DNA of 64,000 bases from the NCBI GenBank assembly GCA_038087875.1, contig CM075989.1:14386001-14450000 (forward strand), read 5' to 3'. The translations under genes were made by a program, and so were the position numbers. Shown here piece after piece: positions 6,112 through 54,940 of the stretch. The stretch's first letter is position 1; every line of letters begins with the position of its first letter. The notes beneath the pieces are model-generated. The model made no database searches, had not been told where the DNA came from, and was given only the letters and a program-made list of their open reading frames with translations. The stretch is from Malacoraja senta (taxonomy: Eukaryota).

Positions 6112-6315
6112 ATAGACACAAAATGCTGGTGTACCTCAGTGGGTCAGGCAGCAACTCTGGAGAAAGGAATAGGTGGTGTTTCAGGTCAGAACCCTTCTTC
6201 AGACTTGAAATATCGCCTATTCCTTTTCTCCAGTCACGTTGCCTGACCCGCTGAGTTACTCCAACATTTTGTGTCTATTTTCGGTATAAACCAGCATCTG
6301 TAGTTTCTTCCTACA
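6112..6315. mobile_element. Palindromic Penelope-like terminus with a hammerhead core on the minus strand (6178-6202)
   Basis: Inverted arms ~6112-6182 and ~6207-6278; minus strand reads CTGAAGA-AGGGTTCTGACCT-GAAAC. Confidence 0.7.
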
Positions 6316-6534
6316 TGTTAGAATTTGTTGCCAGTTGTCTATGGTGCTTAAGAGTCAGGTCATTGACTCGTTGGCCTCATCCAGTGTTTGGCACTTTGTT
6401 TGCCATTTGTTAAAAAGACACTGGTCTAGATATTCTTTCTCACCTCGGCAGGCACATCAAAGCAGTACTGACACCTCCTCCTTGCATCCCAGATTGTCAA
6501 ACTCTGACATACACAACAGGCATGCAGATCTTTG

Positions 6535-6720
6535 TCCCCATGCATTCCCTCTCGGTTGCTCCAGTTTCCACCCACACTCCAAAGGCCTACAGGTTTGTAG
6601 TTAAGTGGCTTTGATAAGTGTGTAGGATAGTGCTAGTGCACAGGGATTGCTGGTCGGTACGGATTAGGTCGGCTGAAGGGCCTGTTTCCGCGCTGTATCT
6701 CTAAACTAAACTAAACTAAA
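6535..6720 (+). mobile_element. V-SINE 3' part
   Basis: cacccacactccaaag...ggcctgtttccgcgctgtatctc followed by (taaac)n tail. Confidence 0.8.
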
Positions 6721-7076
6721 GGAGCGTGTTTTCCACCCCAACTTGGGGTACACTGCACCTTTCCTGCCCAGATATAAAAGCAGATAGTATTATCAGTAAA
6801 AGTACATATTCTAATAGAAATTGTAATCCCATTTTCTATTTTGCTTAGCCAACATATAGGGATAGTTGTATACAAATTAATTTCTAGCAATTGCACTTTG
6901 AAAGTTCCAAATGGTCGCTGTTTCCATTACTGGACATGCAATGAGTTCCAGATCACAACAACATTCCTGTGTACATTATGTTACTTCTTACCAGAGTTCA
7001 ACCAGAATTCCAAGTCCTAATGAGTAGGAAGTTACTTCAGTCTGCGATTTTGAATCACTTGCAATTATTATCACCT

Positions 7077-7314
7077 CCCGATTACGGGTGCTGTCTGTAC
7101 GGAGTTTGTACGTTCTCCCCGTGACCTGCATAGGTTTTCTCTGAGATCTTCAGTGTCCTCCCACATTCCAAAGACATACAGATTTGTAGGTTAGTTGGCT
7201 TGGTAAATGTAAAAATTGTTCCTAGTTGGTGTAGGATAGTGTTAATGTGTGGGGATCGCTGGTCGGCGTGGGCCGAATGGCCTGTTTCCATGCTGTATCT
7301 CTAAACTAAACTAA
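7077..7314 (+). mobile_element. V-SINE, 5' truncated
   Basis: ggagtttgtacgttctccccgtgacctg V-domain and (ctaaa)n tail. Confidence 0.85.
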
Positions 7315-7677
7315 ATTATTGCACTAGAGTTGCAGACATTATGACAATTCATTAATGAGTGCTTTACAAAAAATGATTGCAGGTGCAACCTGATTGCTAT
7401 TTTCTTCAGCAAGATCATATTGTTTTTTGATATATTTACAATATTAATAAATGAGTCTACTAAACGTTGATTGAATAAGTAAAAAATAGCTATGAAAATA
7501 CAAAGCCTTCAATGCACTTGACATGATGAATTCAGCATCTGCAAGGCAATGGTTCCTACCAACATGCCCCCACAACACCACACCGCTGTCCAACAGGAAA
7601 TGTTCACAGTCAGAACCTGCACAGCCATGGATTGAATGAGGAACAGAATATTTGAACATCAGGATCTCAGACCTGGT

Positions 7678-8362
7678 CTAAGCATGCAGGTACAGCAGGC
7701 AGTGAAGAAAGCGAATGGCATGTTGGCCTTCATAACAAGAGGAGTTGAGTATAGGAGCAAAGAGGTTCTTCTGCAGTGGTACCGGGCCCTAGTGAGACCA
7801 TACCTGGAGTATTGTGTGCAGTTTTGGTCCCCTAATATGAGGAAGGACATTCTTGCTATTGAGGGAGTGCAGCGTAGGTTCACAAGGTTAATACCCGGGA
7901 TGGCGGGACTGTCATATGCTGAGAGAATGGAGCGGCTGGGCTTGTATACTCTGGAATTTAGATGGATGAGAGGGGATCTTATTGAAACATATAAGATTAT
8001 TAGGGTTTGGATACGCTAAAGGCAGGAAACACATTCCTGTTGTTGGGGGAGTCCAGAACCAGGAGCAACAGTTTAAGAATAAGGAGTAAGGCATTTAGAA
8101 CAGAGATGGGGAAACACTTTTTCACACATAGAGTTGTGAGTCTGTGGAATTCTCTGCCTCAGAGGGCGGTGGAGACCGGTTCACTGGATACTTTCAAGAG
8201 AGAGCTTGATAGGGCTCTTAAAGATAGCGGAGTCAGGGGATATGGGGAGAAGGCAGGAACGGGGTACTGATTGTGGATGATCAGCCATGATCACATTGAA
8301 TGGTGGTGCTGGCTCGAAAGGCCGAATTGCCTACTCCTGCACCTATTGTCTATTGTCTATTG
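7678..8362 (+). mobile_element. CR1 LINE 3' fragment
   Basis: ORF2 C-terminus YRALVRPYLEYCVQFWSP...GVQRRFTRLIPGM...FFTHRVVSLWNSLP; (ctattgt)n tail. Confidence 0.92.
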
Positions 8363-10733: not shown

Positions 10734-11295
10734 GTGCAGGTGCAGGAGGTTCACCTGCACCTCCTCCAACCTCATCTATTGCATCCGCAGCTTAGGTGTC
10801 AGCTGCTCTACATCGGTGAGACCAAGCGTAGGCTTGGCGATCGCTTCGCCCAACACCTCCGCTCGGTTCGCAATAACCAACCTGATCTCCTGGTGGCTCA
10901 GCACTTCAACTCCCCCTCCCATTCCGAATCCGACCTTTCCGTCCTGGGCCTCCTCCATGGTCAGAGTGAGGCCCACCGTAAATTGGAGGAGCAGCACCTC
11001 ATATTTGGCTTTGGTAGTTTACACCCCAGTGGTATGAACATTGACTTCTCCAATTTTAGGTAGTCCCTGCTTTCTCCTCCCCTTCCCAGCTCTCCCTCAG
11101 CCCATTGTCACAACCTCTTCCTTTCTTCTTTCTGCACCCCGCCCCCCCCCCCCACCCTCACATCAGTCTGAAGAAGGGTCTCGACCCGAAACGTTGCCTA
11201 TTTCCTTCGCTCCATAGATGCTGCCTCACTGGCTGAGTTTCTCCAGCATTTTTGTCTACCTTCGATTTTCCAGCTTCTGCAGTTCCTTCTTAAAC
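10734..11295 (+). mobile_element. Penelope-like element 3' part: GIY-YIG endonuclease C-terminus, pyrimidine-rich repeat, hammerhead core and tail
   Basis: RFTCTSSNLIYCIR (frameshift) CQLLYIGETKRRLGDRFAQH...RKLEEQHLIF...GMN, followed by CTGAAGAAGGGTCTCGACCCGAAACGTT. Confidence 0.88.
11168..11195 (+). ncRNA. Minimal type I hammerhead ribozyme motif (Penelope-associated)
   Basis: CUGAAGA, extra A, helix II GGGUC/GACCC, GAAA, palindromic ACGU and cleavage triplet GUU. Helix I is weak, so activity is unverified. Confidence 0.7.
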
Positions 11296-12479: not shown

Positions 12480-12960
12480 CAACATCTGTGGAAAGAGAAA
12501 CCAATTAATGTTCCAGGTCAAGGCCCTTTGGCAGAACTGAGGGGAGAGTGGAGGGGTAAAAAGGTGTTTTCAAAGCAGAGCGGGGTGGGTGGGGGGGGAG
12601 GTATAGGCACAAGAATGGATGGAGATCGGTTAAGGTAGAGCTGCTGGTAAGGGGCATGAGGACTGCCAATTGGGGAGCAATTTTATAGAACAAAAAAACA
12701 AATGACTGGAGGAGCTCAGCAGGCCACACAGCATCCACAAAGGGAAATGGACAGGAGGCTTTTCAGGTCGAGTCCCTTTTTCAGACTGAAGTTTGTTTTT
12801 TGCTCAGGATTCCAGTGCATACAAACAAGGTGATAAAGGGACATCAGCATGATATTGGGAAACGATAACAAGTTGAAAATTAATTGTTCATTTCCAGGTG
12901 ATTGTAAAGCACCCAAACAAAAGATAAGATGTTGTTCTTCTAGTTTACATTGGGGCCCGC
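12480..12960 (-). mobile_element. Old Penelope-like remnant(s), including a degenerate hammerhead terminus (~12760-12784)
   Basis: Minus strand encodes QCKLEEQHLIFCLGALQSPG, homologous to the C-terminus of the 10734 element. Confidence 0.65.
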
Positions 12961-14464
12961 TATGGCAGCGCAGGAGGTAGCAGACAAAATGGGAGTGGGA
13001 CTGAGAATTAAAGTGACATACGACATACTCTTAGACAAAGTTTCATTATTTGAACAATGCAATTGCCTCCTTCTCTGTGCTATTGAGGGGTTTTTTCTGC
13101 CATTAAGCATTTTATCACAAGAATCCAATATAGTGTATGTTTTGTTGTTTCATTGAGCCATACTTGTGCTCCACATAGCTCTGTCGAAAAACATTAGGGA
13201 GATTTATATCGATTGGCATTTCATCTTCAGCAAGAGAAATGTTGAAGGATCATTTTTGTAAGCTGTCACCAAGGAAACTGGTTTTGCATAAGTTGTGGAT
13301 TTCCCAAATTCTCATTGGCAATTGACAATCATGCTGGCTGATTTGAGGAGCTTCTGTGGTAATAAGTGACGTATACGAGAGAAAAATGATGGAAAAGCTA
13401 AAAAATATTGAAATATATTCTGTGCAAAAATGTCACAAGTACCAATAAATTGTGTAAGGATAAATTGTGAGATGCGACAGCAATACTCATGTGAAATCTT
13501 ATTTTCCCTGAGGATAATAAACCATCCGATTGTGTATACTTTTTGGAAGGTTATATTCTTTATTATCTGTAGCTTTGAGAAAGCTGTGGGAATGTTGAGT
13601 GGGGAAGTTCTATAAAGGAAATCTCTGTCTAATGCCCCCGCCGCTTCAACACCCACTCCCCAGTCCACTGCAATCATCACTTTACAATAAATAAGAAAAC
13701 AGTTAGATTACTGTTTCTTTTGGATGGCAAGATTATGACATCAAATGCAGTCCAGAACCAGAGCACTTGATCTATCTGGCATTTAGAGTACCATCTAGAG
13801 AATGCCATTTGTTACACTCAAGACTGTTAGATGCCCCCCACTGAGAATCATGAAATAACACAGCACAGATGCAGGCTGTTGTTTGCGGCGTGCCTCTTTG
13901 GTAGAGTTATCTCATTAATCCCGCTTTCCTGTTCTTTCCTCAACCTTGGTTAACAACACATTGCTATTTGTGTATCCTTTTTGCACAAAGAATGGTTATC
14001 AACGCAAGTCTCAGTGTATGTGATACAGGCTAGTGCTCTGCTCAATGGCCTATTGACATTGAGCGAACCAACATTAAATAAATTCTGCCTGCCTTCCTTT
14101 TGGCTAGTTATTTATTTTCACTAAGCATGATATTTGAAGTTCAGGTCTAGAGTTACAATGTGCGTAGAAGGCTTTTTCTTATAAAATGGCTTCTCCAACC
14201 TGACGTCGCAATGTCTCTGTGTACTGGTACTTGGCAACCACATTCCTTGCCATCTTTTGAAATTCCTATGTTAAAAGCAAATTTCCAGCATTGCCTTTAC
14301 ATGTTTGTAAAAGGCAACAAAAGAACAATGTCAAATCATGGTTTTAACACTTTGCTGCAAGCATTGTTGCCCATAGTATGTCAGTTATTTAAAACATGTT
14401 AATATCTTTTGATTTTTGGTGTTGCACGCATGGCTTTATCATTGATCCTGCTTAATTGTTTCAG

Positions 14465-20444: not shown

Positions 20445-22206
20445 AGTACCCGTTGATACTCATCTCATTTATGAGCACCTGGTCTATAGCCTCTCAGCCT
20501 TGGTAATTCAAGGAGTCTTTTTAAATGTTGTGAGATTAAATGTTACATACATTACATTATTTATACCCATCAAATTCTCATATTTTTCTGACTCTTTTAA
20601 GTGCTGAATCTCAACTCTGAGAAAGGATGGGTTGGATTCTAAGATTCAATTACAAGACAAAATTATTCGCACCAGGAACAGAACCACTCCACTCCCCAGC
20701 AGAGGCAAGTGGCCAACCTACTTAAGGATGCTCTCTGCTTTCATTTAACACACATTTTAAACTACAGGCTTCCTAGACCACTGGAGACTTGGCAGCTGTA
20801 AACACAAAAGCTGGGCTGAGTCCATGAGGTAGGTGTCTTCAAAGCACTGTGCTGGCCAAGACAAGCAAGCTGGAGCCTCAGACCCAAAACACACTCAGTA
20901 AATCCACAATGAAACATTATTTCCTGCCGCTCCAACCATCACCTCACCTCATTCTCTTGACCCACGTCACACCACCTTTCCCCCACTCTTTGCACCATAA
21001 AACTCGAGACGCCAAAACCAAGTGATTCTAAAAAGCTCCCTCACCGTGATTTCTCTCCAAACAATTTCAACCAAATGCCCTCTACTTTAATTCTCAGGAC
21101 TTTTGGGAAAACCTTTGCATAGCTTTCACCCCAACCTCTTGCGATCCTTCCCATTGCACAATAAAACTCAGATATAACTGTCTCTCCTGCTTTTTTAATC
21201 TAGATGCCCAATTCTCTGCCAAATTAGTTATATCCCACTTCCTTTTGTATATTACTACTTGTTAGTTGGTACAGAATATTCTTCACATCGCTTTTTTTTC
21301 CTTCCGCTCCAAGTCGAAGCTGCATAAGAGAAATTTCCTCACTCCTTTTTTTGCTTCTGTCAAATATTTGAGATTGTTTCTCCCCTGGTTTCTGAACTCG
21401 TGCCAGTGAAACCAGCTTCTCCAGTCCATCAATGCACTGATCATTTTGAACCCCTCCTTAAATCTCTCTTTTCCTTGCACTCAATGATATCTCCCAGAGC
21501 TTTTGTCTTTCCACAATGCTGAATTTTCCCTCCTTGATATCTATGCTAGTACCTCAACTCTGCTTGACTTATTTCAAATCAAACCAGTATGGCTCAAGAT
21601 ACACTCTCTTGCTTGTCTGTTCAATGCACAATTTATAAACACAATAAATATTTTTTTAACAATGTTATCAATATCTACCTGGAAAGATTTCAATATTTAC
21701 TTCATGGTCCTGGATTGAAAGCTGGCATTGGATGATAGACAATTATTCCTTAATGCAGTAGCTTGTTCTCAATGGTGTCGGGGTCCTGTAACTGAGCTCT
21801 TGACAACCCTGCCTCTGTTAGACATGCGAGTCTGCCACAAAAGTTTCTAATTCTCTGACCAAATTAATGTTCATGTCGAGAACGCAAGCCGCTGTAATTC
21901 AACATTCAGCATCAGTCCCAAGGTCTGCACTGAATACTGCTTTGGATCTTGCTTCATCTATGACTATGAAAGCTTCCCTCAAACAGCACACTTGCTAAAT
22001 ACAAGGACAACCACAGGGATCAGAATACATGACTAAGATAATTCTTCGCTCTCAGCATAGACAGCATGGCAACATCTTGCAGCCTTATCATGGTATGCAG
22101 ACAGTGCTGACTGTGCTGTTGAATGCCAGTATGAGAGGCAAGAATCTCTTAAAGGAGAACTGCATCACTGTAAGACTGCCTGCGGCTCTCAAAGGAGGTC
22201 GAGGGA

Positions 22207-22330
22207 AGAAGGGTTTCAGCCCGAAACGTTGCCTATTTCCTTTGCTCCACAGATGCTGCTGCACCCGCTGAGTTTCTCCAGCACTTTTGTCTACCTTCGA
22301 TTTTCCAGCATCTGCAGTTCCTTCTTAAAC
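22207..22330 (+). mobile_element. Short Penelope-like terminus starting inside the hammerhead core, with 8-bp flanking direct repeat
   Basis: agaagggtttcagcccgaaacgttgcct...cttaaac; TCGAGGGA at 22199-22206 and 22331-22338. Confidence 0.8.
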
Positions 22331-22550: not shown

Positions 22551-23300
22551 AACTGGAAACAGAAGAGTCTGCAGATGCTGCAATCTAGAACAAAAAACAA
22601 TGCTAGATGAACTCAGCAAGTCAAGCAGCAACTGTGAAGGCTAACGTTGTACGCCAGCATTTTGGGTTGTTCATACCAGTACGTCCAGGTGAGAAAGAGG
22701 TTCATGTGCACCTCCCCTAACCTCATCTACTGCATCAGGTGTTCCCGATTTGGTCTATTGTACATTGGCGAGACAAGCATACTCAGCGGCCGTTTCACTG
22801 GACATTGGCTCGATCCGCCAATGCCTACTGGATCCCTCAGTTATTAATCATTGTAATTCCCCTTCCCATGTATGAACATTGATCTCTCCAGTTTTAGGTA
22901 ACTAACATTTCTCCCCTTTTTTTTATCTCTCCCCTCTCTCCCCTGTTTCCCAATTAGACTTGCACCTATTTCTCTTCTCCCCTTCCACCTACATTCCTTC
23001 CTCTAGCTTCACAATCCACAACTCTTCAATCTTTTTGTATCAAACCTTCTGTCTTTTCATCTCTGGCCTCTGTCCAACCACCTGCCTATCAAAGACCCCC
23101 TCACCCGTATCCACCTATTACCCGGCAGGCTTTGTCCTATTTCTCCTTTCTTCCAGCTTTCTTCCCCTATCCCCTTCTCCCCCCTCCCCCCAACACAATC
23201 AGTCTGGAGAACGGTCCTGACCCAGAAAGTCACTTATCGATGCTCTCCGGAGATGCTGCTTGACCCACTGAATTGCTCTAGCACGTGTATTTTCTTGGGT
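22551..23300 (+). mobile_element. Penelope-like element: inverted terminus, GIY-YIG remnant, terminal repeat and degenerate hammerhead
   Basis: QVRKRFMCTSPNLIYCIRCSRFGLLYIGET at ~22686-22775; agtctggagaacggtcctgacccagaaagtc at ~23201. Confidence 0.8.
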
Positions 23301-26079
23301 TGAGACCCTGCTTCAGGACCGAGTGGGAACAGGAAGGATTGCTGGTAGAGAACAGCTGTTACGACCACCTCTTGGGACGAAGTCTCCATTATGGCCACAA
23401 TCGTAGGTCCATGCATTGATTTGGGCCCTAGGTTCATCCGTTTTACACAAAATACTCCTTGCATTGACATGCAGTGACTGGCTTAGCTGTCTGAATAAAG
23501 GAAATTATATTCACTGCACTCTAATTAACTGAAAAGTGCCACAGTTACTTGTTATCTTAAACTACCAGCAGATCATTGGCACTGCAGCACCCATTCCGTA
23601 ACTGTTCAACTTTATGCAGTTTGATACTGAAACAAATGCCAATGACAGTGTCAGTCCTTCATTATCATAATATTAACCTGCTCTACAAAAGCCAGATTCT
23701 GTAAAGGTTCCCTGTTATTTGGAGCTCCCAGGACAACATGCTCATAAATCCGTAGTATTAACTTAGAAGGCCCGCAGATACGTAAAATACTTCCCTCAAT
23801 TTCTCAAATCCATTGAAGTACCATCAAATTTCAAATATTTTGTTGCAAAGTGGTCATAGACATTGGGGTAAACTTTCAAGATGCTATTCAGGAATAAAAT
23901 TGGTTATTTGACCACACCTTCAATTTCCATCTCCTCCAACTTAATGTGTTTGGGAGGGACTTCTGTGCCTTATCTTGGGAAACATTGAAACTCTCATGTG
24001 AAACCCAGCTCTTTGTTCCATTTAGTCACCTAATCAGCCAGTTTACTTCATCTGATGGATTTAGACCCACCAAAATATTCTTCAACTATTTCAGACTTCA
24101 AACTGGGCAGGTATAAAAAAGACATCGACCTCAAACCTACCCATTAATGGCAAAGACAGCTCTCAATTATCATCATTAATGGAATTGATCTGAAGTTATA
24201 TACTCTCTCGAGGTCCCATTGCAAATTCACAGCAATTTATCTTACCTTTCAGTTTTTATTTCTGGTGCTATATTTTGAAGTCATGAAAAATGCTCAGTGT
24301 TATGACCAATTAATCCTTTGGGAATTTTTTCCAACTTGCCATTTCTCTTCAATCATGCCATATTTTACTCTGATCTCATGGGTCCATATAATGTTCCTCC
24401 TAGCTGACATATAGAAGGCAAAAATACAGTATGCTATTTATTTCCTCAAATACTAAACTTTCCCATTGTTGCCCATGTCAGAATTGCTCCATTTTCAAAT
24501 ACATTTTGACATAATCAGATTGCAACTCTTTCATCTTCGCCTCTGTGCAGCTGTAATGAACTGCTCTCCTGTTTAAATTTCGACTGAGTTTTTTATATTT
24601 TCCCAGATTTAGACTTTTTTTAGCAGATGCCTTTGTTTTCACCTTCCCCTTTTACACCGGTAATCTGTAGCATATTCTTCGAGTTGCTGAAGTTTCCACT
24701 TCACTTGAAGCTTTTGTAGAATAAGTAAACAGGTATATGTTTTGCTTCTTAGTTTTAATTAGAAACAAGCCTACTTGAAAGCAGCAGCATAGCATTTGAA
24801 CCAGGTTAAACTGAGCAAAATAAAGCTGTCAGGCATCTTTTCCAAATGTCACAGTGGAAGATGTGTAGTTATATTGCAATATATACTGTGAATTCATCTC
24901 TTTGATACGTTTTGATGAAAGCAGAGATAATTTCCCTCTTTGTCAAGTGTGCTATCAGTGCTACCATTTCAGTTGGTTGGATACCTCTTGGAGTTTACTT
25001 TTCTCTTGTATCTAGGTATATTGTTGCAACATCAAACATATCTCAACCTTTTATCTTGTAATACTATTAAGATGTAAATTAGGCAAATTGTTCAATTTCT
25101 CTCAGTAACAATAGCATTTCATATTCTGAGGACCTTTCCTTTCAATAGAAACATGAATTTTGCCTTCCATTCCAGTACTAAAATTGGATCTCTGAACAGA
25201 TTACAATTGAGAAATTAAAAATATATGTTGTTGAGAATGTTGTAAATACTTAAAGTCATTCCATGTTTCTTGATTCATTGTTTTAGTAAAAATGGGTCTA
25301 TTATATATATACGTGAAGGCCTCTGTTAAAGTAACAAATAGAACATTTTTCCTTGTATGTTAAGGTTTGCAGTGATTTATACATTGTAAACGCAATCACC
25401 TGTCTGCAGAGATTATGTTTATGGCACAAACCTAGCCCATTAAACAATGAACAGTCGATAGCATAGCTATGAAAATCAATAAAACTGCAGAGGCTGTAAA
25501 TCTGAAATAGAAGTGGTAAATAATGTTGTCACTCAGCATCTGTGGAGAGGGAATCAGAGGTAATTTTCCAGATCAGATAGCTTAGATCTATTTTGCTTTA
25601 GATAGATCAGTGTGGTTTCCATAATCAATAAAGTTTGATATCAAGATAAATACTGAAGGAAATCTTTAAAAGTCTTGTTTAAAATCAAAATGTATAACCT
25701 TCACAGCATTTTGTACTTCTGTGATGCTTTTGAATGTGGTCTTTGGGAGGACAAGAAGGTATCACTAGACACATGAGAACTCCCACATCCCCTTGGAAGG
25801 GCAGCAGAGGATTTTGTTTACCATCACAATTAAAATATGTAGTATTCTTACATGGAAATAACATCTTGGGTCAGCTATGGCCAGTTCCTGCCTGAAGAAG
25901 TGAGGGTGCTGTCAAAAGCAAAAAGTTCTAATGATACTTTTATAATAATACTAGTAAAGCATCTAATTATACTTCACTGGAGAAAATCCATAGAAAGTTT
26001 GAAAAAAAATGTATTAGGCTAGATGATCAAAGAATTAAGCTCAAGGGAGCATGTTCCTAAAAAGTAGAAGCAAAAGGAT

Positions 26080-31202: not shown

Positions 31203-31357
31203 TGTGTAGGAAGGAACTGCAGGTGCTGGTTTACACCAAAGATTGATACAAAATGCTGGAGTAACTCAGCGACCCAGGCAGCATTTCTGGATAGAACCGT
31301 TCCTTCTATCCAGAGATGCTGCCTGTCCTGCTGTTACTCCTGCATTTTGTGTTTATC
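31203..31357. mobile_element. Palindromic Penelope-like terminus (no hammerhead core retained)
   Basis: Inverted arms 31241-31296 and 31304-31357 of the same tail sequence. Confidence 0.75.
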
Positions 31358-35055: not shown

Positions 35056-36224
35056 AGAGATGTTGCCTGACCTACTGAGTCACTCCAGCACTTTGTGTCT
35101 TTTTTGTGGCTTGTGTCACATCACCTTTTTACCACCCAGCTCTCTCCTATGAGGCAGACTTCCTGACCGCATCAAAGTCCCAAACACTTAAAAATATCTC
35201 AATTATTTGATCAAGAAAATCTATCTGGATGACCGTCAGGTACCATGGATGAAGACAAAGCCCCAACACAGTTCTAGTAACTCTGTATATAAAAGGTTTC
35301 TTAAGTAATTTCAGATATTTTGTATCAAGATCTGTCAAAGGATTCTTCCTCCAGCATTGCATGATTCACAGTAAATCTTCACAGATGATATGTAAAATTG
35401 ACATGTGTGGAAAATGAAAGGAACCTGTTCCCATGTGTTAATCGACATAATGGGCTTTATACCATTATAATTAAATTAATAGTTAAATAGAAAAGATTCT
35501 CTCTCCCAGCTTCTTACCTTGGCGTAGAATAACCTTATAGCCTGTTCCTTTTATGTAAGAATTTACATATTTAAGTTTACACGTAATCTCATAGATGATA
35601 AGACAAGTGAAAAGCTAATTGTGACAACTACAAGATTTCTGAATAGATTAATATAATATAACCATGTTTTTTCAGCTCAAGTCACTGCAATATGTAAATG
35701 GGAGGGTTGTTCTGACTGCATCACAAAAAAAATAGATAAGCACCTCGGGTAAAAATCATCTCTCATTCATTTGCAGAATTAAAGTCCATTGTACAGGTAG
35801 ATTGCTGAAAAATCACAATAAATCAATGCTATATTTAGTTACATCAAATTAATAAAAATAAGCCTCCAACGCATTGTATAAGTAATTTATGGATTCCTAT
35901 GTTATATAACCCACTTACCAAAGAAAGTTGAGTTTATTTTTATATGCATAAGTACAGTGTGATACAGGAACAATGAAAATTGCAGTAGCATCGCAGGCAT
36001 ATAGACTTGGACTCAGATAGATTGGGACAGACCATTGACAAACAGTGATCAAGCAAGATGCAGGATTGTTGCAGCAGGGTTTGGAGAAGGTTGGGGTTTA
36101 TGGAGGCAGAAAGGCCTGTAAATAAGGTTAAAATGTAAACTACAGATGGTGGAAATCTGAAATGAAAATAAATGTTGGAATCAAGCAGAGCTCAGGCTGC
36201 ATCACAGAGATTCATTAAGTTTAC

Positions 36225-36804: not shown

Positions 36805-37135
36805 ACATCCGGTACTGGGGATTTATCCACCTCATCCTTCCATCAATATCCCTCCCTCCAGCTTGACATTTCACTCCTCCTTTATCTGGCACTCTTTTGT
36901 CTCCATTTCACCTCTAGCATTTGTCACTATCTCCACCGATCACACACTCATCCTCACCTGTATCACTTGCCAGGCTTTGCTCCACCCCTACCTCTCTTTT
37001 CCAGCTTTCTCACCCTCCCACTCCATAAGTCTTAAGAAGGGTACCAACCCAAAACATCATCTCCACAGAAGCTCCCAGTCCCACTGACTTCCTCCAGCAT
37101 TTTATTTTTTTCCAGCATCTACGGTCTTTTATATC
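36805..37135 (+). mobile_element. Penelope-like terminal repeat with degenerate hammerhead (~37030-37060)
   Basis: Pyrimidine-rich repeat like 22960-23200, then agtcttaagaagggtaccaacccaaaacatc and the tail. Confidence 0.65.
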
Positions 37136-38398: not shown

Positions 38399-39026
38399 AT
38401 TTTAATTGGACTTTGTTTATGAAAAAGTTTGGAATCAACAATGAATTTAGTCTGAAATGCTTTCTGGTCTAATTATTTTAAGGCAATTCTCTTGCAAAAT
38501 TTGTTCTATACCTGAGGTTTAGCAGTTATACTGTTGGAAGGAGCATCTGATTTCATATTTTGATGGTTCGCCATAAATTGTCAATGTACCTCTTTCACTA
38601 ATTGCATTGATGTTCAGATTTTCTCCTAAACTTACAAAATGCACCGTCAGCTGAACACTTCTAAACCAATAAACCATTGCACAGTTTAAATCCTGTAGTC
38701 TAAATTTGAATTGTGTTCATTGGAAAGTTGATAGTGGAATTAGAAATTCAGTATTTTAAACAATTAAGAAGCTTGTCAGAATTGGGAAAGTTACAACATT
38801 TTACTTCAACCTATTTGAAAATGTTTAGTGGAGAAAGAATGTTTAATAGATTTGCCTCACTCCACAACTGAACCGTGAAGGTTATGACAAAATTAGACCA
38901 GTGAATGTGCAGTATAGTGGGATAACTAGGTTTTTTTCAAAGCTTCACCTCAAATTGACTGCTGAATAGAAAGCCTCTGTATTCAGACAGTTGTAACTGT
39001 CAGAAGTAAAATGAGTTATTGTGTTT

Positions 39027-39150
39027 CCGAAGAAGGGTCCTGACCCAAAATGTCGTCTGTCAATTTCTCTCCACAGATACTGCTTGACCCACTGAATTTC
39101 TCCAGCAGTTTGTTTTTTGCTGAAGTTCCAGCACCTACAGTTTCCTGTAG
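39027..39150 (+). mobile_element. Short Penelope-like terminus with degenerate hammerhead
   Basis: ccgaagaagggtcctgacccaaaatgtc followed by the tail. Confidence 0.7.
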
Positions 39151-43982: not shown

Positions 43983-43996
43983 ACTGATCTGGCAGC

Positions 43997-44540: not shown

Positions 44541-44697
44541 TGTGTAGGAAGGAACTACAGATGTTAGTTTACACCGAAGATAGATACAAAATGCTGGAGT
44601 AACTCAGTGGGACAGGGAGCATCTATGGAGAGAAGGAATGGGTGATGTTTCGGGTCGAGACCCTTCTTCAGACTGAGAGTAAAATCTTATTATGAGC
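44541..44697 (-). mobile_element. Short Penelope-like terminus with intact hammerhead core (44647-44671) and 12-bp flanking direct repeat
   Basis: Minus strand CTGAAGAAGGGTCTCGACCCGAAACATC; GTAATAATCTTA at 44529-44540 and 44698-44709. Confidence 0.8.
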
Positions 44698-45636: not shown

Positions 45637-45742
45637 CAGCACAATTTAGACACAATTCTGGAATACTCCAGTTTAACTGTACTTTTTTCAAGTGCCTTAT
45701 TTGCTCCCAAATATAAATGAGGCTCATCAGCCTCATTATATT

Positions 45743-45855
45743 GAAGATAGACACAAAATGCTGGAATAACTCAGCAGGTCGGGCAGATGCTGAGTTACTC
45801 CAGCATTTTGTATCTATCTTCGGTGTAAACCAACATCTGTCGCTCCTTCCTACAG
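45743..45855. mobile_element. Palindromic Penelope-like terminus
   Basis: 34-bp inverted arms 45743-45776 and 45788-45821 (32/34 complementary). Confidence 0.78.
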
Positions 45856-46324: not shown

Positions 46325-47666
46325 CAATAAACAATAGACAATAGGTGCAGGAGTAGGCCATTTGGCCCTTCGAGCCAGCACCGCCATTCAATGTGATCAT
46401 GGCTGATCATCCCCAATCAGTACCCCGTTCCTGCCTTCTCCCCATATCCTCTGACTCCACTATCTTTAAGAGCTCTATCCAACTCTCTCTTGAAAGCATC
46501 CAGAGAACCGGCCTCCACCACCCACTGAGGCAGAGAATTCCACAGACTCACAACACTCTGTGTGAAAAATTATTTCCTCATCTCCGTTCTAAATGGCTTA
46601 CTCCTTATTCTTAAACTGTGGCCCCTGGTTCTGGACTCCCCCGACATCGGGAACATGTTTCCTGCCTCTAGCGTGTCAAAACCCTTAATAATTTTATATG
46701 TTTCAATAGGATACCCTCTCATCCTTCTAAACTCCAGAGTATACAAGCCCAGCCGCTCTATTCTCTCAGCATATGACAGTCCCACCATCCTGGGAATTAA
46801 CTTTGTGAACCTACGCTGCACTCCCTCAATAGCAAGAATATCCTTCCCCAAATTTGGAGACTAAAACTGCACACAATAATCCAGGGGTGGTCTCACTATG
46901 GCCCTATACAACTGCAGAAGGACCTCCTGTAGGTAGACAAAAGTGCTGGAGGAACTCAGCGGGTGCCGCAGCATCTATGGAGCGAAGGAAATAGGTAACG
47001 TTTCGGGCCGAAACCCTTCTTCAGACTTTCAGTGACTTCCTTTCTGTGACTGATGAACAAGGACCCCCAGATCCCGTTGTACTTCCCCTTTTCCCCAACT
47101 TGACACCATTTAGATAATAATCTGCCACCAAATCTGCCACTGTTTTTGCCACCAGAGTGGATAACCTCACATTTATCCACATTAAACTGCATCTGCCATG
47201 CATCTGCCCACTCACCCAACCTGTCCAAGTCACCTTGCATCCTCATAGCATCCTCCTCACAGTTCACACTGCCACCCAGCTTTGTGTCATCTGCAAATTT
47301 GCTAATGTTACTTTTAATCCCTTCATCTAAATCATTAATATATATTGTAAATAGCTGCGGTCTCAGCACTGAGCCTTGCGGTACCCCACTAGTCACTGCC
47401 TGCCATTCTGAAAGGGACCCGTTTATCCCTACTCTTTGTTTCCTGTCTGCCAACCAATTTTCTATCCATGTCAGCACCCTACCCCCAATACCATGTGCTC
47501 TAATTTTGCCCACTAATCTCCTATGTGGGACCTTATCAAATGCTTCTGAAAGTCCAGATACACTACATACACTGGCTCTCACTTGTCCATTTTCCTAGTT
47601 ACATCCTCAAAAAAATCCAGAAGATTTGTCAAGCATGATTTCCCCTTCTTAAATCTATACTGACTC
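46325..47666 (-). mobile_element. CR1 LINE fragment (RT core to 3' end) with a nested Penelope terminus
   Basis: AFDKVPHRRL...TSGVPQGSVL.PQLFTIYINDL...FADDTKLGG; (ctattgt)n tail. Confidence 0.95.
46928..47027 (-). mobile_element. Short Penelope-like terminus with intact hammerhead core (47000-47024)
   Basis: Minus strand agtCTGAAGAAGGGTTTCGGCCCGAAACGTTacc plus tail. Confidence 0.82.
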
Positions 47667-47887: not shown

Positions 47888-48155
47888 CTGAAGAAGGGTC
47901 CTCACCTGAAATATCACCTATCCATGTTCTCCAGAGATGCTGCCTGACCTGCTGAGTCACTCCAGCACTCTGTAAAACGTCACCTATCCATGTTCTCCAG
48001 AGACACTGCCTGACCTGGTGAGTCACCTATCCATGTTCTCCAGAGATGCTGCCTGACCCGCTGAGTCACTCCAGCACTCTGTAAAACGTCACCTATCCAT
48101 GTTCTCCAGAGATGCTGCCTGACCCGCTGAGTCACTCCAGCACATTGCGTCTATC
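47888..48155 (+). repeat. Hammerhead core followed by four tandem copies (~50-70 nt) of the Penelope tail
   Basis: CTGAAGAAGGGTCCTCACCTGAAATATC, then a repeated cacctatccatgttctccagagatgctgcctgacc.gctgagtcactccagcac unit. Confidence 0.85.
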
Positions 48156-48925
48156 CTGGATAAATGTTTAGATTGACAGAGAAGGTTTTGTCATAATTCT
48201 TGAATATTGAGTCCAGTGACAGAAATATATCATCTCATCGTTTACATTTCTATGTAAACTTGCTTTTTATTCTTTTATTCTGTTCGAAATAAAGAATTAA
48301 ATAAAAAATAGAAAATAAATAAATAAATAAAGATATGTAAAATTGCTTTCTTATCTGAAGTGAGATATATTGTTCAATTAATAAGGATATGGAAATGTTA
48401 CAACAGCACACTTAACAATTGCTCAGAGAAGTCTTATCAGTCTCCAACTATCCATGAAATGTTGTAGTACATAAAGGGACATTTGGCACATCAGATCCTT
48501 TCAAGTTATTACCTGTTCACCTCTTGCAGTAATACTATTGACTTTAGTCAGGGCTACACCTCAATCCTTATACTGTTGCAGTTGTGGTTGGATTAATATT
48601 AACCAGTATTTTCTGCTTGATTCATTTTAAAACCCAGCACTTAGTTTTGTTTAGATTATTTAACCCGAGTACTACACAAGGAAAACATCCAACTTTAATG
48701 ACTTTAACACCCCTCATCTTCCACTGGAGTAACATGACAACACTTTGCACTAATTCAAGATGTGCATTTTAACCACCTGATAAATAATGCAGAATATCCC
48801 TGGTGTTGGTGGAAGGGCTGTTCACAGTAGTTATTCATTCCAACAACCACGTCTCCAGAAGGAAAGGTCTTCCATAAAAAACAGGTTATCAATGAAACTT
48901 CTATAGAGATATAGATTTTTCCTAC

Positions 48926-49018
48926 GAATAAGGGTCTCGACCCGAAACATCACCCATTCCTTCTCCCCAGAGATGCTGCTTGTCCCGTCGAGTCACTCCA
49001 GCATTACTGTCTACCTTT
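48926..49018 (+). mobile_element. Short Penelope-like terminus with 12-bp flanking direct repeat
   Basis: gaataagggtctcgacccgaaacatc...; GATTTTTCCTAC at 48914-48925 and 49019-49030. Confidence 0.78.
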
Positions 49019-49329
49019 GATTTTTCCTACATTTTGGGCATTCATGCTGCTTATTCACATTAAATGCAATCTTAAATCATCATGGGATTCCCAAATCTTT
49101 TAAAACTGTCAAGAGACCAAGAACTCTTGTGCAGATTCAATTTCTTTGGGAAGACTGCAGTGGCATTTCTTCCAGGAATCCACTTTTATCAAAACACAGA
49201 GCATTGAATTTAATTATAACATTTTAGTTATTTTGCACACAGACTATCCATGTGTTATTAAAATTCTGCTTATGGACACTGTTGTATACAAATGAGCTCC
49301 CATAACATTATTAAATCCAAAAGTACAAC

Positions 49330-51679: not shown

Positions 51680-51875
51680 CCACAGATGCAGAGATCTGGA
51701 GCACCAAACAATCGATGGGTCGAGCAGCATCTGTGAAGTGAAAAGGAATTGTCAGCGTCACGGGTCAAAGCCCTGCATCAGTCCTGAGGCAAGGTCTTGA
51801 TTCGAAATATTGACAATCCCTTTCCCATCACAGATGCTACTCGACCTGCTGAGTCCCTCCAGCAGATAGATTGCT
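51680..51875. mobile_element. Head-to-head Penelope-like termini with two degenerate hammerhead cores
   Basis: Minus CTGATGCAGGGCTTTGACCCG and plus CTGAGGCAAGGTCTTGATTCGAAATATT; inverted tails. Confidence 0.65.
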
Positions 51876-52934: not shown

Positions 52935-53432
52935 CGGAGCTATAGAGCACGGAAAAAGGCCTTTAGACCCAACTCAACCATGCCATTCAAGCTGTCACCC
53001 TCAAAGTCCCTTTCACCTGAGTATGGCAAATGTTCCATTAATTCTTTCTTATCCACGTACCTGTCCGAATGTATTTTTTTTATTGTATCCAGTTCTACTA
53101 GTTTCCCTGGCAGCTCATTCCATATACCCGCAATCCTCTGTGGAAAAACAAACCTCTCAGGTCCTCTTTAAATCTTACCCCTCTCACATTACCCTATGTC
53201 CCCTAGTCGTGGACTCCCCTACCCTGGAGAAAACACTGTCCCAATCCATCTCCCACATGAACCTATAAACCTCTAAGGTTACTCCTCAACCAACTTTGCT
53301 CCAGGGAATATAGCCCCAGCCTACCCAGTCTTCCAGTCCTAGCAATATCCTTGTGAATATTTTGTGCACCCTCTCTACCTAAATCACATTCTTCCTATGA
53401 TATGGCGACCAGAATTGCACACAATATTCCAG
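52935..53432 (-). mobile_element. Degenerate CR1 3' part (continues at ~54289-54318 after an insertion)
   Basis: gcgaccagaattgcacacaatattccag ... gtgcggtttcaccaagg is the reverse of LVRPHLEYCVQFWSP. Confidence 0.7.
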
Positions 53433-54287
53433 GTGGGTAGATGTTCCAGGTGGGAAGATGGCCAGGGCGGTTGGGGGCGCTGTTCGTTATTTCGACTTTT
53501 TTTTTGGAATGTCCAAATGTTTGTTTTAGTGTCTCTCGGTATGTCTTATGTGGGGGGGGGTGGTGGGGGAGAAAAGGGGGAAACCGTTTTTCAGTCACTT
53601 CCTCAACGGTGAGGCGACTTTTTCCATGTCGCTTCTCCACTTCCCCTCTCGTGGCCTAACAGTTTGGATTGGAGCGGCATTTCCTGGAGTCGGGCCCAGA
53701 GCTTCAGCAGCGGGCGCAGCGTGGACTTTTCCATCGCAGAGCGGGGTGAACCCTTGCCGGGGGTCGCCAGAAAGGTGTGCTCCCATCGCTGGCCTGGTGA
53801 CTTTGGCATCATGTGGCTGTGGTCTACGGAGCTTCTAGCAGCGGGCATAGCGTGGACTTACCATCCGGAGCCAGGGATCCCTTGCCAGGGATCGCCGGAG
53901 AAGAGCTCCGACCACTGGCCTGCGGCCTATAACATCCTGAAACCGTGGTTTCCAGTAAGCAAATGGCCGACTCGGGCACTCCAAGCCACGGAGTGTGTTC
54001 GACCGTCCCGACGTCAGAGTTTCGATCATCCCGACGAGAGGGCCTCTGCATCCGGGCGTCCGTAGCAAGCGACTGCAGGGGGTTCATAGCCCCGACCACG
54101 GATGAACAAAGGAGGAGGACTGACTGAACTGTGTTGCCTTCCACCACAGTGAAGAATGCTGTGGTGGATGTTTATGTTAAATTCTATTGCGTATTGTGTG
54201 TTCTTTTTCACTTGCATCGCTGCTGGCAAATTCATTTCACTGTACTTTAGTTGGTGCATGTGACAAATAAATTTGTATCTTGTATCT
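53433..54287 (+). mobile_element. GC-rich non-autonomous element, possibly full length, with a Rex1/Babar-like tail
   Basis: 5' AAGATGGC motif (53455-53462), internal ~130-nt duplication, hairpin 54140-54168, TGACAAATAAA plus (ttgtatc)n; splits a CR1 remnant. Confidence 0.72.
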
Positions 54288-54319
54288 CGTGCGGTTTCAC
54301 CAAGGTTTTGCACAACTTG

Positions 54320-54815
54320 AGTTTAGTTACAGCGTGGAAACAGGCCCTTTGGCCCATCGAGGCCGCACTGACCAGTGATCCCCACCCATTAACAGTACCC
54401 TACACACACAAGTGACAATTTTCTACATTTATATCAAGCCAATGAACCTACAAACCTGTACATCTTTGGAGTGTGGGAGGATACCGAAGATCACGGAGAA
54501 AACTTATGCAGTCATGGGGAGAACGTACAATCTCCATACAGACAGCAGCCATAGTCAGGATCGAGCCCAGGTCTCCGGTGTTACAGAACTGTAAAGGGCC
54601 TGTCCCACTTACACGATTTTTTCGACGACTTGCTGGCACCCGTCATAGTCACAGCAGGTTGGCGAAAATGTTCAACATGTTGAAAATCTAGCGGCAAACA
54701 GAAAAAGGTACGACTCTTTGGGCGACTACTCACCACCAAACAGGCGTCACCCCGAATGTCACGGTGGGACAGGCCCTTTAGGCAGCAACTCCACCGCTGC
54801 GCCACTGTGCCGTCC
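54320..54815 (-). mobile_element. V-SINE interrupted by a MITE
   Basis: SINE sequence ctgtaa|ggcagcaactc is split by the 54595-54777 insertion. Confidence 0.85.
54595..54777. mobile_element. MITE (PIF/Harbinger-like), 183 bp
   Basis: Perfect 14-bp TIR AGGGCCTGTCCCAC/GTGGGACAGGCCCT; flanks TAA and TTA; internal palindrome TTCAACATGTTGAA (54671-54684). Confidence 0.8.
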
Positions 54816-54840
54816 GACTGTAACATGTATATGTAGAAAT

Positions 54841-54940
54841 GTCTAAAAAAGAAGGGTCCTGACCTGAAACATCACCTCTCCTTGTTCTCCAGAGATGCTG
54901 CCTGACCCACTGCGTCACTCCAGCACTTTTTTGTCCTTTT
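54841..54940 (+). mobile_element. Short Penelope-like terminus with damaged hammerhead core
   Basis: gtctaaaaaagaagggtcctgacctgaaacatcacc plus tail. Confidence 0.75.

Follow-up and report, generated by a model that had tools for sequence, protein, structure and literature searches.

Hammerhead-bearing mini-repeats of Malacoraja senta as probable by-products of an autonomous Penelope-like element

The 64-kb stretch of the Malacoraja senta genome analyzed here (hereafter the window) contains scattered repeats, 105-135 letters long, in which a hammerhead-like motif is followed by a common tail, and which are best explained, with a probability of about 0.6, as dead-on-arrival run-off cDNAs of the leader of the pseudo-LTR (pLTR) of a Penelope-like element (PLE), that is, as by-products of the autonomous element. 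Judged by its sequence, the repeat unit is the pLTR of a PLE, and the family is a previously known kind of element, the ribozyme-carrying PLE. The PLE reverse transcriptase (RT) would start internally, about 73 or 103 nt beyond the motif, and cDNA synthesis would run off at the RNA 5′ end in TCAGT, the 5′ edge of the motif. To judge from the ends of the DNA copies, this common 5′ boundary is likely the transcript start rather than a ribozyme cut.

All of the 13 sites named in the original prediction bear CTGAAGA-A-GGGT(4-nt loop)ACCC-GAAACGT(C/T), and the strict pattern CTGAAGANGGG..CC..GAAAC matches the window four times versus zero in every one of 100 dinucleotide shuffles. For the 51-nt motif region, a covariance model built on 83 copies (7 from the window) and searched with filters off recovered 13 of 13, twelve as full matches at E<1e-5 (Table 1). 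A profile of the last 465 nt of the element brings the window total to 26 pieces, tail-only pieces and inverted pairs included. The complete core and the ACGT palindrome occur together only at 11168(+) and 47000(-); the site at 47888(+) keeps the core with a changed palindrome, and the other ten are mutated or 5′-truncated. The very high abundance that had been predicted was borne out: an exact 25-mer occurs 28,408 times in the genome and a degenerate 25-mer 108,839 times, versus 0 for its control, which scales to an estimated ~5x10^5 motif-bearing copies genome-wide, and the density is 64.8 per Mb in the sample described below versus 56.0 per Mb in the whole genome.

Table 1. Pieces of the element in the window. 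Covariance-model matches have E<1e-5 unless stated; "additional" marks pieces beyond the sites first named.
Feature	Position	Strand	Profile positions	Covariance-model match	Details
Head-to-head inverted pair	6103..6314	both	332-435 and 350-462	6160-6210(-)	Left arm 6205->6103(-), AGTCTG start; right arm 6202-6314(+) (additional), start within motif, long 3′ end
5′-truncated PLE	10794..11294	+	1-463 (E 4e-125)	11160-11210(+)	C-rich 3′UTR linker after the coding remnant, intact hammerhead motif (CTGAAGA at 11168, ACGT palindrome, H17=T), tail to long 3′ end
GIY-YIG C-terminal coding remnant of the same PLE	10794-11042	+			tblastn, P0001 residues 790-874
PLE 3′ fragment	12694..13015	-	67-424	12742-12792(-)	Endonuclease C-terminal end, linker, motif, tail; core broken (G8 to A)
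Mini-copy	22205..22329	+	337-463	22198-22245(+)	Start 2 nt into core (GAAGAAGGG), long 3′ end; flanks TCGAGG
Copy with ~30 nt linker	23168..23301	+	302-434	23196-23246(+)	Core mutated (A6 to G), short 3′ end
Inverted pair, tail-only pieces	31205..31357	both	372-463 (-), 364-427 (+)		Additional
Tail fragment	35055..35102	+	379-426		Additional
Decayed copy, short linker stretch	37013..37115	+	311-430	37029-37062(+)	Core broken (G5 to T, G12 to A)
Decayed mini-copy	39026..39142	+	334-453	39019-39069(+)	U4 to C, G12 to A
Complete mini-copy, 134 bp	44543..44676	-	330-463 (E 6.8e-34)	44629-44679(-), the best, 75.9 bits	TCAGT to long 3′ end; core intact, palindrome decayed to ACAT; TSD flanks ATAAGATT(T/A)T
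Inverted pair, tail-only pieces	45724..45854	both	found by profile		Additional; long hairpin; weak miRNA-like Rfam match at 45751-45813
Young-subfamily mini-copy	46928..47027	-	332-431	46982-47032(-)	AGTCTG start to short 3′ end; motif intact (GGGTTTCGGCCC, ACGT, H17=T); within LINE reverse-transcriptase ORF 46956-47594(-), RVT_1 E 4.9e-20
Mini-copy	47888..48174	+	four consecutive matches	47880-47930(+)	CTGAAGA start, palindrome decayed to ATAT; then ~3 tandem 61-bp repeats, AAACGTCACC to CTCTGT stretch
Mini-copy	48926..49031	+	337-443	48916-48966(+)	5′ end truncated or mutated (GAATAAGGG)
Diverged head-to-head inverted pair	51695..51866	both	51783->51695(-), 51775-51866(+) (window positions)	51776-51826(+), E 9.5e-4
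Mini-copy	54849..54936	+	338-424	54835-54888(+)	Start within core (AAGAAGGG); TSD flanks TAA(C/T)ATGTATAT, 11 matches

The proposed origin from a Penelope terminus was supported: the PLE whose terminal repeat contains the motif has an RT plus GIY-YIG ORF. This ORF is followed by a C-rich 3′UTR linker of ~110 nt, TCAGT, the 28-nt motif and the tail, and in full-length copies the linker-motif-tail block is also found directly 5′ of the ORF. In copy L013 the end of the GIY-YIG ORF (43% identity to P0001, a protein of 879 aa with RVT_1 plus GIY-YIG; E 8e-51) precedes linker, motif and tail, and the insertion is flanked by a 15-bp target-site duplication (TSD), with a partial copy in inverted orientation also present; L065 spans residues 282-879 of P0001 (E 6e-140), and L100-L104 have open frames of 952-1261 aa with the pLTR downstream. 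A complete pLTR also stands immediately before the ORF in L100 and L101, its tail adjoining the ORF region, and the one in L103 is internally gapped. Subfamilies a, b and c are all also seen joined to the PLE linker, with copies starting at the motif edge and copies reaching linker or ORF in the ratios 13:9, 36:16 and 19:11, respectively; the ORF is reached in the sample by subfamily a only, and the ORF-linked L013 is b-like by inspection.

Copies with ribozyme motif and tail only, which had been suggested to be the majority, amount to about half, and they share a sharp 5′ boundary. A linker-bearing profile of 14 copies was used to score 194 tail-bearing copies in a 464-kb sample: the starts of 92 fall within 14 nt at TCAGT (profile positions 327-340), those of 40 upstream of position 321 and those of 13 at 358-372. 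Immediately upstream of TCAGT, column identity drops from 0.85 or higher to 0.3-0.4. An inverted copy abuts 24 of these 92 edge copies and a C/T-rich flank (C+T 0.72 or more) 4, the flanks of the remaining 64 being unrelated. In the young subfamily (n=18,122, with upstream continuation in 9,535 copies) the preceding base is non-native at T330 in 907 copies, at C331 in 1,085, at A332 in 2,028, at G333 in 3,128 and at T334 in 1,439, a peak of only ~2-3x the per-site background of 6-9%. The boundary sequence TCAGTCT conforms to the YYANWYY initiator, and an initiator promoter without a TATA box is described from within the pLTR of Drosophila virilis Penelope (Schostak et al., 2008, PMC2377424).

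At the other end, insertions stop at ...GTGTACC(T) or 35 nt farther, at ...CTTCTTTAAC, with 98 3′ ends of the 464-kb sample at profile 415-439 and 75 at 450-464, so that the predicted common tail extends 73 or ~103 nt past the predicted cleavage site. These two ends agree with the two RT start sites published for PAc, the Anolis carolinensis Poseidon PLE, in which reverse transcription is initiated internally (Frangieh et al., 2024, PMC11167929). Among 63 copies, 13 have TSDs with 8 or more matches, versus 4.4% in a permuted control, and TSDs directly adjoin the 5′ boundary. Most copies are single-motif monomers dispersed through the sequence, and inverted pairs in head-to-head arrangement are common; the two tandem arrays examined are both without the ribozyme core and therefore could not give circles by double cleavage.

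The motif contains the predicted hammerhead core in full, with the hallmarks published for the minimal hammerheads of metazoan PLE pLTRs (Cervera and De la Pena, 2014, PMC4209133): location in the pLTR, type I order, with CUGANGA, helix II and GAAA ahead of the site, an unpaired base separating 9 from 10.1, a G10.1-C11.1 pair, and a palindromic 15.2-16.2 with no loop 3, hence the dimeric action predicted there. By analogy with these ribozymes, cleavage by the motif would require a dimer formed via its ACGU palindrome. As in that survey, the motifs are mostly single and dispersed, with some opposite-strand pairs. Helix II is here of 4 bp plus a tetraloop, compared with 7-8 bp in Schistosoma mansoni PLEs and 6 bp in a D. 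virilis variant; helix I has 2 base pairs only, a length given in the accessible part of the survey just for the D. virilis variant, and copies number over 10^5, compared with 4,000-9,000 in the richest genomes listed there. In the same part, single motifs are called "probably related to truncated PLEs" and a common 5′ boundary is not described (PMC4209133).

The suggestion that helix II varies while keeping its pairing is weak: in the 83 copies its changes are one-sided (G-C to G-U, U-A to U-G) or in the loop, covariation within the family is absent (84.6% of cells paired versus 85.4% in shuffles), and for each pair at most 1 copy of 83 is changed on both sides. The Rfam hammerhead models, proposed as a check, gave no match to the motif even at E<=10, and minimum-energy folds of monomer and dimer did not yield the hammerhead fold. 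The core proved as mutable as its flanks, an outcome that the original prediction had named as refuting it, core and tail blocks being equally conserved; this is expected of dead copies and therefore says nothing on the source elements. Young source copies retain every one of the 11 invariant core bases, together with the G10.1-C11.1 pair and the ACGU palindrome. Within the motif, four differences were noted when subfamily a was compared with b, each of them structure-compatible: a U-A to U-G change, a single loop base, C to U at H17, and A to G at 1.1, opposite U2.1. In view of the Rfam, helix I, covariation and folding results, the identity of the motif as a ribozyme is weakly supported.

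We regard as somewhat unlikely the idea that the source elements have retained the motif for some function besides self-cleavage (for example, protein binding, RT initiation or promoter activity) and that its hammerhead likeness is vestigial. Starts at the predicted cleavage site are not in excess in the 464-kb sample (5/194 at profile 360-365), and in the young subfamily ~78 of the first 100 cases other than T are the C17 variant, and the remainder falls below the number for a control position 2 nt distant; in PAc, hammerhead mutants were without effect on in vitro insertion and RNA-seq gave no reads starting or ending at the cut site (PMC11167929). Such a role is countered by the invariant bases, pair and palindrome of the young source copies, by the structure-compatible a/b differences, by the PAc motif, which cleaves with protein help (PMC11167929), and by a few copies and one array that begin precisely at the cleavage site.

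A transcript start at TCAGT has to be weighed against a stop of the telomerase-related PLE RT, which would leave the template at a bound or dimerised leader and not at the RNA end, for example at the 9-nt palindrome TCAGTCTGA, which overlaps the CUGA box and is able to pair two RNAs. This would produce an identical picture, and a pLTR start at TCAGT should leave some upstream partial-copy ends there, whereas in 30 full-length young copies these ends vary (17 past the profile start, the rest at 11 to 392) and none lies at 327-338. RNAcofold pairs two leaders via UCAG/CUGA, the inverted copy adjoining 24 of the 92 edge copies often forms a perfect palindrome whose midpoint lies in TCAGTCTGA, T stands before TCAGT in the majority of the 907 non-native cases, and the PAc protein binds RNA between motif and RT start (PMC11167929). 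Nevertheless, we consider an RT stop unlikely: a duplex block should halt synthesis on its 3′ side (A338) and not at A332/G333, and no biochemical precedent for such a boundary was found in the PLE studies consulted. The base before A332 is G in 38 of 100 listed cases; at a control two nt beyond the site of cleavage the figure is 35 of 100, and GG also precedes ends situated exactly at the cleavage site; the extra 5′ G is not specific to the TCAGT boundary and therefore is no cap mark.

The original prediction further held that the mini-copies behave as a SINE- or retrozyme-like family. A self-propagating family of this kind, with its own promoter and copied in trans by PLE enzymes, seems doubtful to us. 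It would account for the sharp boundary at the initiator-like TCAGTCT, the TSDs and the huge copy number; the D. virilis Penelope promoter lies within the transcribed region, so a copy from the transcript start could retain promoter parts (PMC2377424), and a 2026 preprint argues for an origin of animal retrozymes from PLE pLTRs (10.64898/2026.07.22.740005). However, each of the subfamilies a, b and c is also joined to the PLE linker, no tRNA-like head was found in the window, no mini-specific lineage emerged, and the copies are single-motif dispersed monomers for the most part, both arrays being coreless. Of the original interpretation, the PLE hammerhead origin stood; compensatory change in helix II was not seen, and a separate lineage seems doubtful. 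Finally, the reading of the copies as random 5′ truncations, with a boundary created by local alignment against a diverged linker, which single-reference BLAST invited by putting some diverged-linker copies there, was already disfavoured and is highly improbable, given that the linker-bearing profile still places 92 starts where ~15 are expected (14 positions out of the roughly 170 that extend from the stop codon as far as the last scored start), that 64 of the 92 flanks are neither inverted copy nor C/T-rich, that TSDs adjoin the boundary and that alignment-free exact-pattern counts give the same peak.

Run-off copying of the PLE leader has a close parallel in PAc, with its two RT start sites and a tail of 30-40 bp that is optional (the 3′ ends here differ by 35 nt), initiation of RT some 75-105 nt beyond the hammerhead site, cutting and extension of both DNA strands, which fits the inverted pairs, insertion without need for cleavage and a cut site without ends; the PAc ORF begins within the motif, where stem II starts, whereas here it begins after the tail, and PAc was studied in vitro (PMC11167929), the present element being read from its genomic copies. 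Animal non-LTR retrozymes are likewise short non-coding hammerhead units related to PLE pLTRs and found as dispersed genomic monomers, but their defining trait is head-to-tail arrays with a ribozyme per unit, which give small circular RNAs (Cervera and De la Pena, 2020, PMC7229834; Li et al., 2026, 10.64898/2026.07.22.740005). The present copies, unlike retrozymes, are mostly single with TSDs or in inverted pairs, and the examined arrays are coreless. The schistosome Sm-alpha and Sj-alpha SINE-like elements have a pol III promoter and a canonical hammerhead. They too are short dispersed retroposons with a type I hammerhead, placed after the promoter (PMC6765202), whereas the present unit forms the terminus of an autonomous PLE and has no tRNA-like head in the window. 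In D. virilis Penelope, whose expression requires an upstream partial copy, a transcript start inside the pLTR, at the initiator of a TATA-less internal promoter, was mapped experimentally (PMC2377424); here the start is deduced from DNA-copy ends. The copies themselves give no sign of cleavage in their formation, and the mini-copies would be products of the autonomous element rather than self-propagating units.

In the window, the strict pattern CTGAAGANGGG(2-12)CC(0-3)GAAAC is matched four times (6178-, 11168+, 44647- and 47000-), with no match in any of 100 dinucleotide shuffles of the same sequence. With one copy as the query, BLAST found 20 related pieces, all falling on the same stretch of ~135 bp, and a profile built from the last 465 nt of the parent element found 26, tail-only pieces and four head-to-head inverted pairs included. 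A covariance model trained on the 51-nt motif region of 83 copies, seven of them out of this window, recovered all of the places listed in the original prediction, as 13 sites. The whole core and the ACGT palindrome are intact only in 11168(+) and 47000(-); with 47888(+), which keeps the core and has ATAT instead, the invariant core is complete in three of the 13 copies, and each of the remaining ones either has a mutated core, with most of the changes at CpG, or has its start within the core.

The high copy number that had been proposed is confirmed by genome-wide counts: an exact 25-mer of the motif occurs 28,408 times, and a degenerate 25-mer allowing for CpG decay and subfamily differences 108,839 times, while its reversed control does not occur at all. 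A sample of 464 kb was made up of the window itself, a further 200 kb flanking it and 200 kb taken from four more contigs. The degenerate 25-mer matches this sample 30 times (64.8 per Mb, vs 56.0 per Mb in the genome as a whole), and the sample holds 139 copies with the motif and 194 with the tail. Scaled up to the genome, these numbers give an estimate of about 5x10^5 copies with the motif and 7x10^5 with the tail; the family likely accounts for a few percent of the genome, by our estimate 3-4%. The unit repeat alone is also present in sequencing-run contigs of several organisms. Over 44541-44680, the contigs of four sequencing runs number in the thousands and contain the repeat only, with loose ends at 44673-44676 and a linker-like one at 44680; no transcript start, end or strand is shown by them.

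The parent of these units is a Penelope-like element (PLE), found by searching the 1.94 Gb of the window's own genome for the GIY-YIG domain. This search led to the locus L003/L013 (Pfam GIY-YIG in L003, 32.1 bits), where an ORF ending in a Penelope-type GIY-YIG endonuclease is followed by a C-rich linker of ~110 nt, the sequence TCAGT, the 28-nt motif and the tail. The ORF is 43% identical to P0001, an 879-aa reference protein with RVT_1 and GIY-YIG domains, over the last 240 residues (E 8e-51), and the insertion in L013 is flanked by a 15-bp target duplication. Another locus, L065, reaches back through the reverse transcriptase (RT; P0001 residues 282-879, E 6e-140), and a young subfamily (L100-L104) has open frames of 952-1261 aa that align to P0001 from residue 122 or 143 to residue 832 or 879. 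The linker-motif-tail block also closes the partial copy that lies upstream in L100 and L101, where the last tail base adjoins the region opening the next ORF, an arrangement which is the classical pLTR. Direct partial tandems are present in L100, L101 and L103, an inverted partial copy lies upstream, on the left, in L013, and the upstream ends vary across 30 loci; among the matches listed, at least 33 loci are 100% identical over 200 nt at the ORF start (by bit score, one of the 200 nt may differ). The element has the features by which PLEs are recognized, namely a frame with RT and GIY-YIG, a variably truncated upstream copy, direct or inverted, and an optional 3' tail of 30-40 bp. The derivation of the units from Penelope termini, part of the original prediction, is borne out by the location of the motif in the linker-motif-tail block after this ORF.

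Two further observations concern related sequences. The netrin receptor DCC isoform X2 of Amblyraja radiata (P0007) shows 87% identity to 7% of the PLE ORF query, probably because part of a PLE was annotated there as an exon. Another family of PLEs, whose open frames are 759 aa long, forms long tandem arrays at G000:C14:18.24-18.41 Mb in the same genome and on many small contigs (L004-L012), with spacings between neighbouring matches, among the matches listed, of about 1.4-1.6, 3.8-5.5 and 7.4 kb. This family was rejected as the source of the unit, no copy of which lies within 1.5 kb of its endonuclease domain.

Features located in the window (window positions)
Feature	Position	Strand	Evidence or remark
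5'-truncated PLE copy retaining the endonuclease end	10794-11294	+	profile and protein alignment
Assembly gap	14566-14765		run of 200 N
LINE RT ORF	33554-34825	+	RVT_1 E 1e-31; also ALKBH8_N-like C-terminal motif
LINE RT ORF	46956-47594	-	RVT_1 E 5e-20; broken by mini-copy 47027-46928, then RT frame resumes
About three tandem 61-bp repeats appended to a mini-copy	47975-48174		AAACGTCACC to CTCTGT (profile 356-420)

Also a LINE was considered as a source and rejected, the RT ORF on the minus strand being that of a LINE into which a mini-copy has inserted; comparison of the LINE around 47027 with the other LINE as an empty site revealed no nucleotide similarity. An array resembling that of the 61-bp repeats is present in another locus of the collection, L036, around 8436-8565.

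In the coordinates of the 465-nt profile, TCAGT occupies 330-334, the core begins at 335 and cleavage is predicted between 362 and 363. The enrichment of 5' ends at the edge of the core, which had been anticipated, is evident among the 194 tail-bearing copies of the sample: 92 start at 327-340, against nine in the ORF, 31 in the linker (217-320), seven at 321-326, 25 inside the motif, 13 at 358-372 and 17 further down. Of those 92, 64 have an unrelated flank, 24 adjoin an inverted copy and four have a C/T-rich flank. Flanking repeats were examined in 63 of the 64 copies with unrelated flanks, one being dropped for a short or N-containing flank: repeats of at least eight matches are found in 13 (4.4% in permuted pairs) and of at least nine matches in nine (1.7% in permuted pairs). 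In the young subfamily, where copies were counted free of alignment by exact 27-31-mers, 18,122 copies reach T334; the native base continues upstream in 9,535 of them, and a non-native base immediately precedes T330 in 907, C331 in 1,085, A332 in 2,028, G333 in 3,128 and T334 in 1,439. The 5' boundary is real and peaks at A332/G333, with a peak in the young subfamily that is only 2-3 times the per-site background of 6-9%. Young insertions have one of two 3' ends, ...GTGTACC(T) or, 35 nt beyond it, ...CTTCTTTAAC, and the ends in the sample are bimodal (98 at 415-439, 75 at 450-464). In Poseidon of Anolis carolinensis (PAc), a PLE in which an "optional 30-40 bp tail" lies between two biochemically mapped RT start sites (PMC11167929), the two sites agree with these two 3' ends.

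Head-to-head pairs deserve separate mention. At some loci of the sample (for example L033:4189-4275, L034:4071-4165 and L038:41-127), the two arms meet in a perfect palindrome whose centre lies in TCAG(T/A)CTGA, a 9-nt palindrome overlapping the CUGA box, and, if transcribed, such pairs would form perfect hairpins of at least 100 nt.

Read as a type I hammerhead, the motif offers CUGAAGA as C3-A9, then a single unpaired A, a four-pair helix II that has G10.1-C11.1 as its closing pair and is capped by a tetraloop, G12-A14, the helix III positions A15.1-C15.2-G16.2-U16.1 with no loop, and C or U at H17. In source-like copies the invariant core of this class (C3 U4 G5 A6 N7 G8 A9, G12 A13 A14 and A15.1/U16.1, with any base but G allowed at H17) reads CTGAAGA ... 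GAAA-CGT-(C/T), and helix II is present as A-GGGT(NNNN)ACCC, with the extra unpaired base between positions 9 and 10.1. Of the 83 sampled copies, 53 have G-C and 18 have G-U at pair 19-31, and the other three pairs are standard in 70-79. The palindrome without loop 3, through which helix III could be built by two copies together, is ACGT in young copies; its C-G is kept in 42 of the 83, the others being mostly products of CpG decay. The published description of PLE minimal hammerheads names three marks, the unpaired base 9/10.1, G10.1-C11.1 and palindromic 15.2-16.2, in forms predicted to act as dimers (Cervera and De la Pena, 2014; PMC4209133), and all three are present here. Furthermore, subfamilies a and b differ at four places read within the motif, all compatible with the structure (helix II U-A to U-G, one loop base, H17 C to U, and 1.1 A to G opposite U2.1).

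Other results fit this form less well. Most described forms have 4-6 base pairs in helix I, which is shorter here: only U2.1-A/G1.1 and G2.2-C1.2 can pair, and beyond them A stands opposite C. In the text of that source consulted here, a 2-bp helix I is described solely for a D. virilis variant (PMC4209133). The Rfam hammerhead models matched nothing in the window, at the gathering score or at E<=10, as is expected for forms without helix III. Neither minimum-energy folding of the unit nor cofolding of two leaders recovered the hammerhead fold, and the cofolded dimer pairs through UCAG/CUGA instead.

For the claim that helix II varies while keeping its pairing, the counts give no signal of compensatory change: across the 83 copies, 84.6% of cells are paired vs 85.4% in shuffles, and three cells changed on both sides, a count of little power because the copies are decaying relics of few sources. 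The core columns, too, are not conserved above the best tail blocks. Neutrally decaying copies would give both of these results, which neither support nor refute a function in the source elements. The motif is a predicted hammerhead of the PLE minimal type I form, with predicted self-cleavage 3' of H17. Low activity in vitro has been published for Penelope minimal hammerheads.

Copies made from cut RNA should begin at ACC, directly after GTC or GTT. No excess of starts appears at the predicted cut site, where 5 of the 194 sample copies begin (360-365). Genome-wide, 1,057 young tails carry a base other than T ahead of ACC; in the first 100 of the listing, about 78 represent the C17 variant, and one array supplies 11 of the other 22. 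At the control position two bases further, there are 1,129 non-native cases, with G or A in about 55 of 100 listed. The cut site is not enriched, the cases there other than the C17 variant being fewer than at this control position; true ends do exist there, as seven of nine fetched loci are such breaks. This agrees with the findings on PAc, in which hammerhead mutants leave insertion in vitro unchanged and the cut site is neither the start nor the end of any RNA-seq read (PMC11167929). The lack of a pile-up argues, in vivo and over evolutionary time, against cut RNA as the usual template.

A separate structure is the perfect tandem array L136:812-2349 (G000:C1:27817312-27818849; 138 bp x 11.1 copies, 100% identity). 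Its unit starts exactly with the base that follows the predicted cleavage site (ACCTATTTCC...), lacks the ribozyme core and covers the tail plus ~38 nt of 5'UTR, ending in ...CAAGGTATG, apparently the start codon of the ORF.

In the simplest account of the boundary, which we consider likely, the RT of the element would start at one of two internal sites, copy the tail and then the motif, and run off at the RNA 5' end within TCAGT, giving units of ~105 or 135 bp. In a bolder form of this account, to which we give a probability of about 0.35, the mini-copies would be "strong-stop-like" run-off cDNAs copied from the initial 105-135 nt of the Penelope transcript. The boundary would then mark transcription start at the first bases of the hammerhead, with the ribozyme uncut during copying; the leader would be repeated at both RNA ends, like the retroviral R, with a terminal palindrome (UCAGUCUGA), and would serve template transfer and the rebuilding of the pLTR. 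Minis could arise from pLTR-initiated RNA, by a leader-proximal RT start, because in pLTR-bearing copies the leader also precedes the ORF. TCAGTCT fits the initiator consensus YYANWYY. In D. virilis Penelope, transcription starts at an initiator inside the pLTR, from a TATA-less internal promoter (PMC2377424). Against the run-off account, which predicts some upstream boundaries at TCAGT, none was found in 30 full-length young copies.

Other promoter or cap signals were sought and set aside. A pol III B-box or a Drosophila-type downstream promoter element in the motif fits poorly, as judged by eye. An extra G as a cap mark, which would have favoured run-off, was rejected: G stands before A332 in 38 and before G333 in 47 of 100 listed cases, but in 35 of 100 at the control position as well, and GG also precedes several ends at the uncapped cleavage site (L137-L141 examined). 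Both results count against the run-off account. In the pattern listings, once transitions are set aside, the base next to a 5' junction on its upstream side is most often G, whichever position was tested, which suggests untemplated G addition whatever the RNA end.

The main alternative to run-off, a fixed stop of the RT at the boundary, for example at the palindrome TCAGTCTGA, is in our judgement improbable; in its favour, this palindrome pairs two leaders in cofolding and lies at the centre of many perfect inverted junctions. Equally doubtful is a self-propagating SINE-like lineage: every subfamily is also joined to the linker, subfamily a to the ORF too, and the unit begins directly with the hammerhead motif rather than a tRNA-like head. 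SINE heads derive from tRNA, 7SL or 5S and carry an internal pol III promoter. In the window, ARAGORN found no tRNA-like gene and Rfam scans no 7SL or 5S match. Retrozymes, defined by head-to-tail units with a ribozyme in each, differ from the units studied here, since all 13 motif pieces of the window are single or head-to-head, and the arrays at 47888-48174 and in L136 repeat tail sequence only. A SINE/retrozyme-like family, as proposed, is improbable on these results. Tandem retrozymes have been linked to PLE pLTRs in a 2026 preprint (10.64898/2026.07.22.740005).

Two other structures of the window are recorded here. At 40518-40585 (-), an HDV-like ribozyme candidate scores below threshold with CPEB3_ribozyme (26.9 bits, cut-off 35; E 3e-05 on a 301-nt stretch) and HDV_ribozyme (28 bits, cut-off 50), and is possibly the 5' ribozyme of a LINE. 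At 43925-44042 there is a hairpin, long and near-perfect, that contains TTTCTATG repeats and gives several weak matches to plant and animal miRNA families (best 40.7 bits, cut-off 85); its appearance is that of a relic of an inverted-repeat transposon rather than of a curated miRNA. For annotation, it matters that the many perfect hairpins formed by inverted pairs of the family could be misread as microRNA precursors.

Both the motif and its location in the pLTR have already been described, and dispersed single motifs ascribed to truncated PLEs (PMC4209133; review in PMC6765202). What is added here is how large the family is, a 5' boundary that falls sharply on the first bases of the motif, the lack of cut-site ends, and the two 3' ends matching biochemical RT start sites; the 5' boundary was not found in the literature on PLE hammerheads that was searched, and we do not claim that it is unpublished. 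About half a million motif-bearing copies, in at least three subfamilies and a young family with long frames, offer a large natural sample of insertion products, and the pile-up at the first bases of the ribozyme gives the transcript start, or else a template boundary, a definite position that can be tested. If the bolder run-off reading is true, ~4% of this genome would preserve, in fossil form, the products of Penelope reverse transcription that failed or was aborted.
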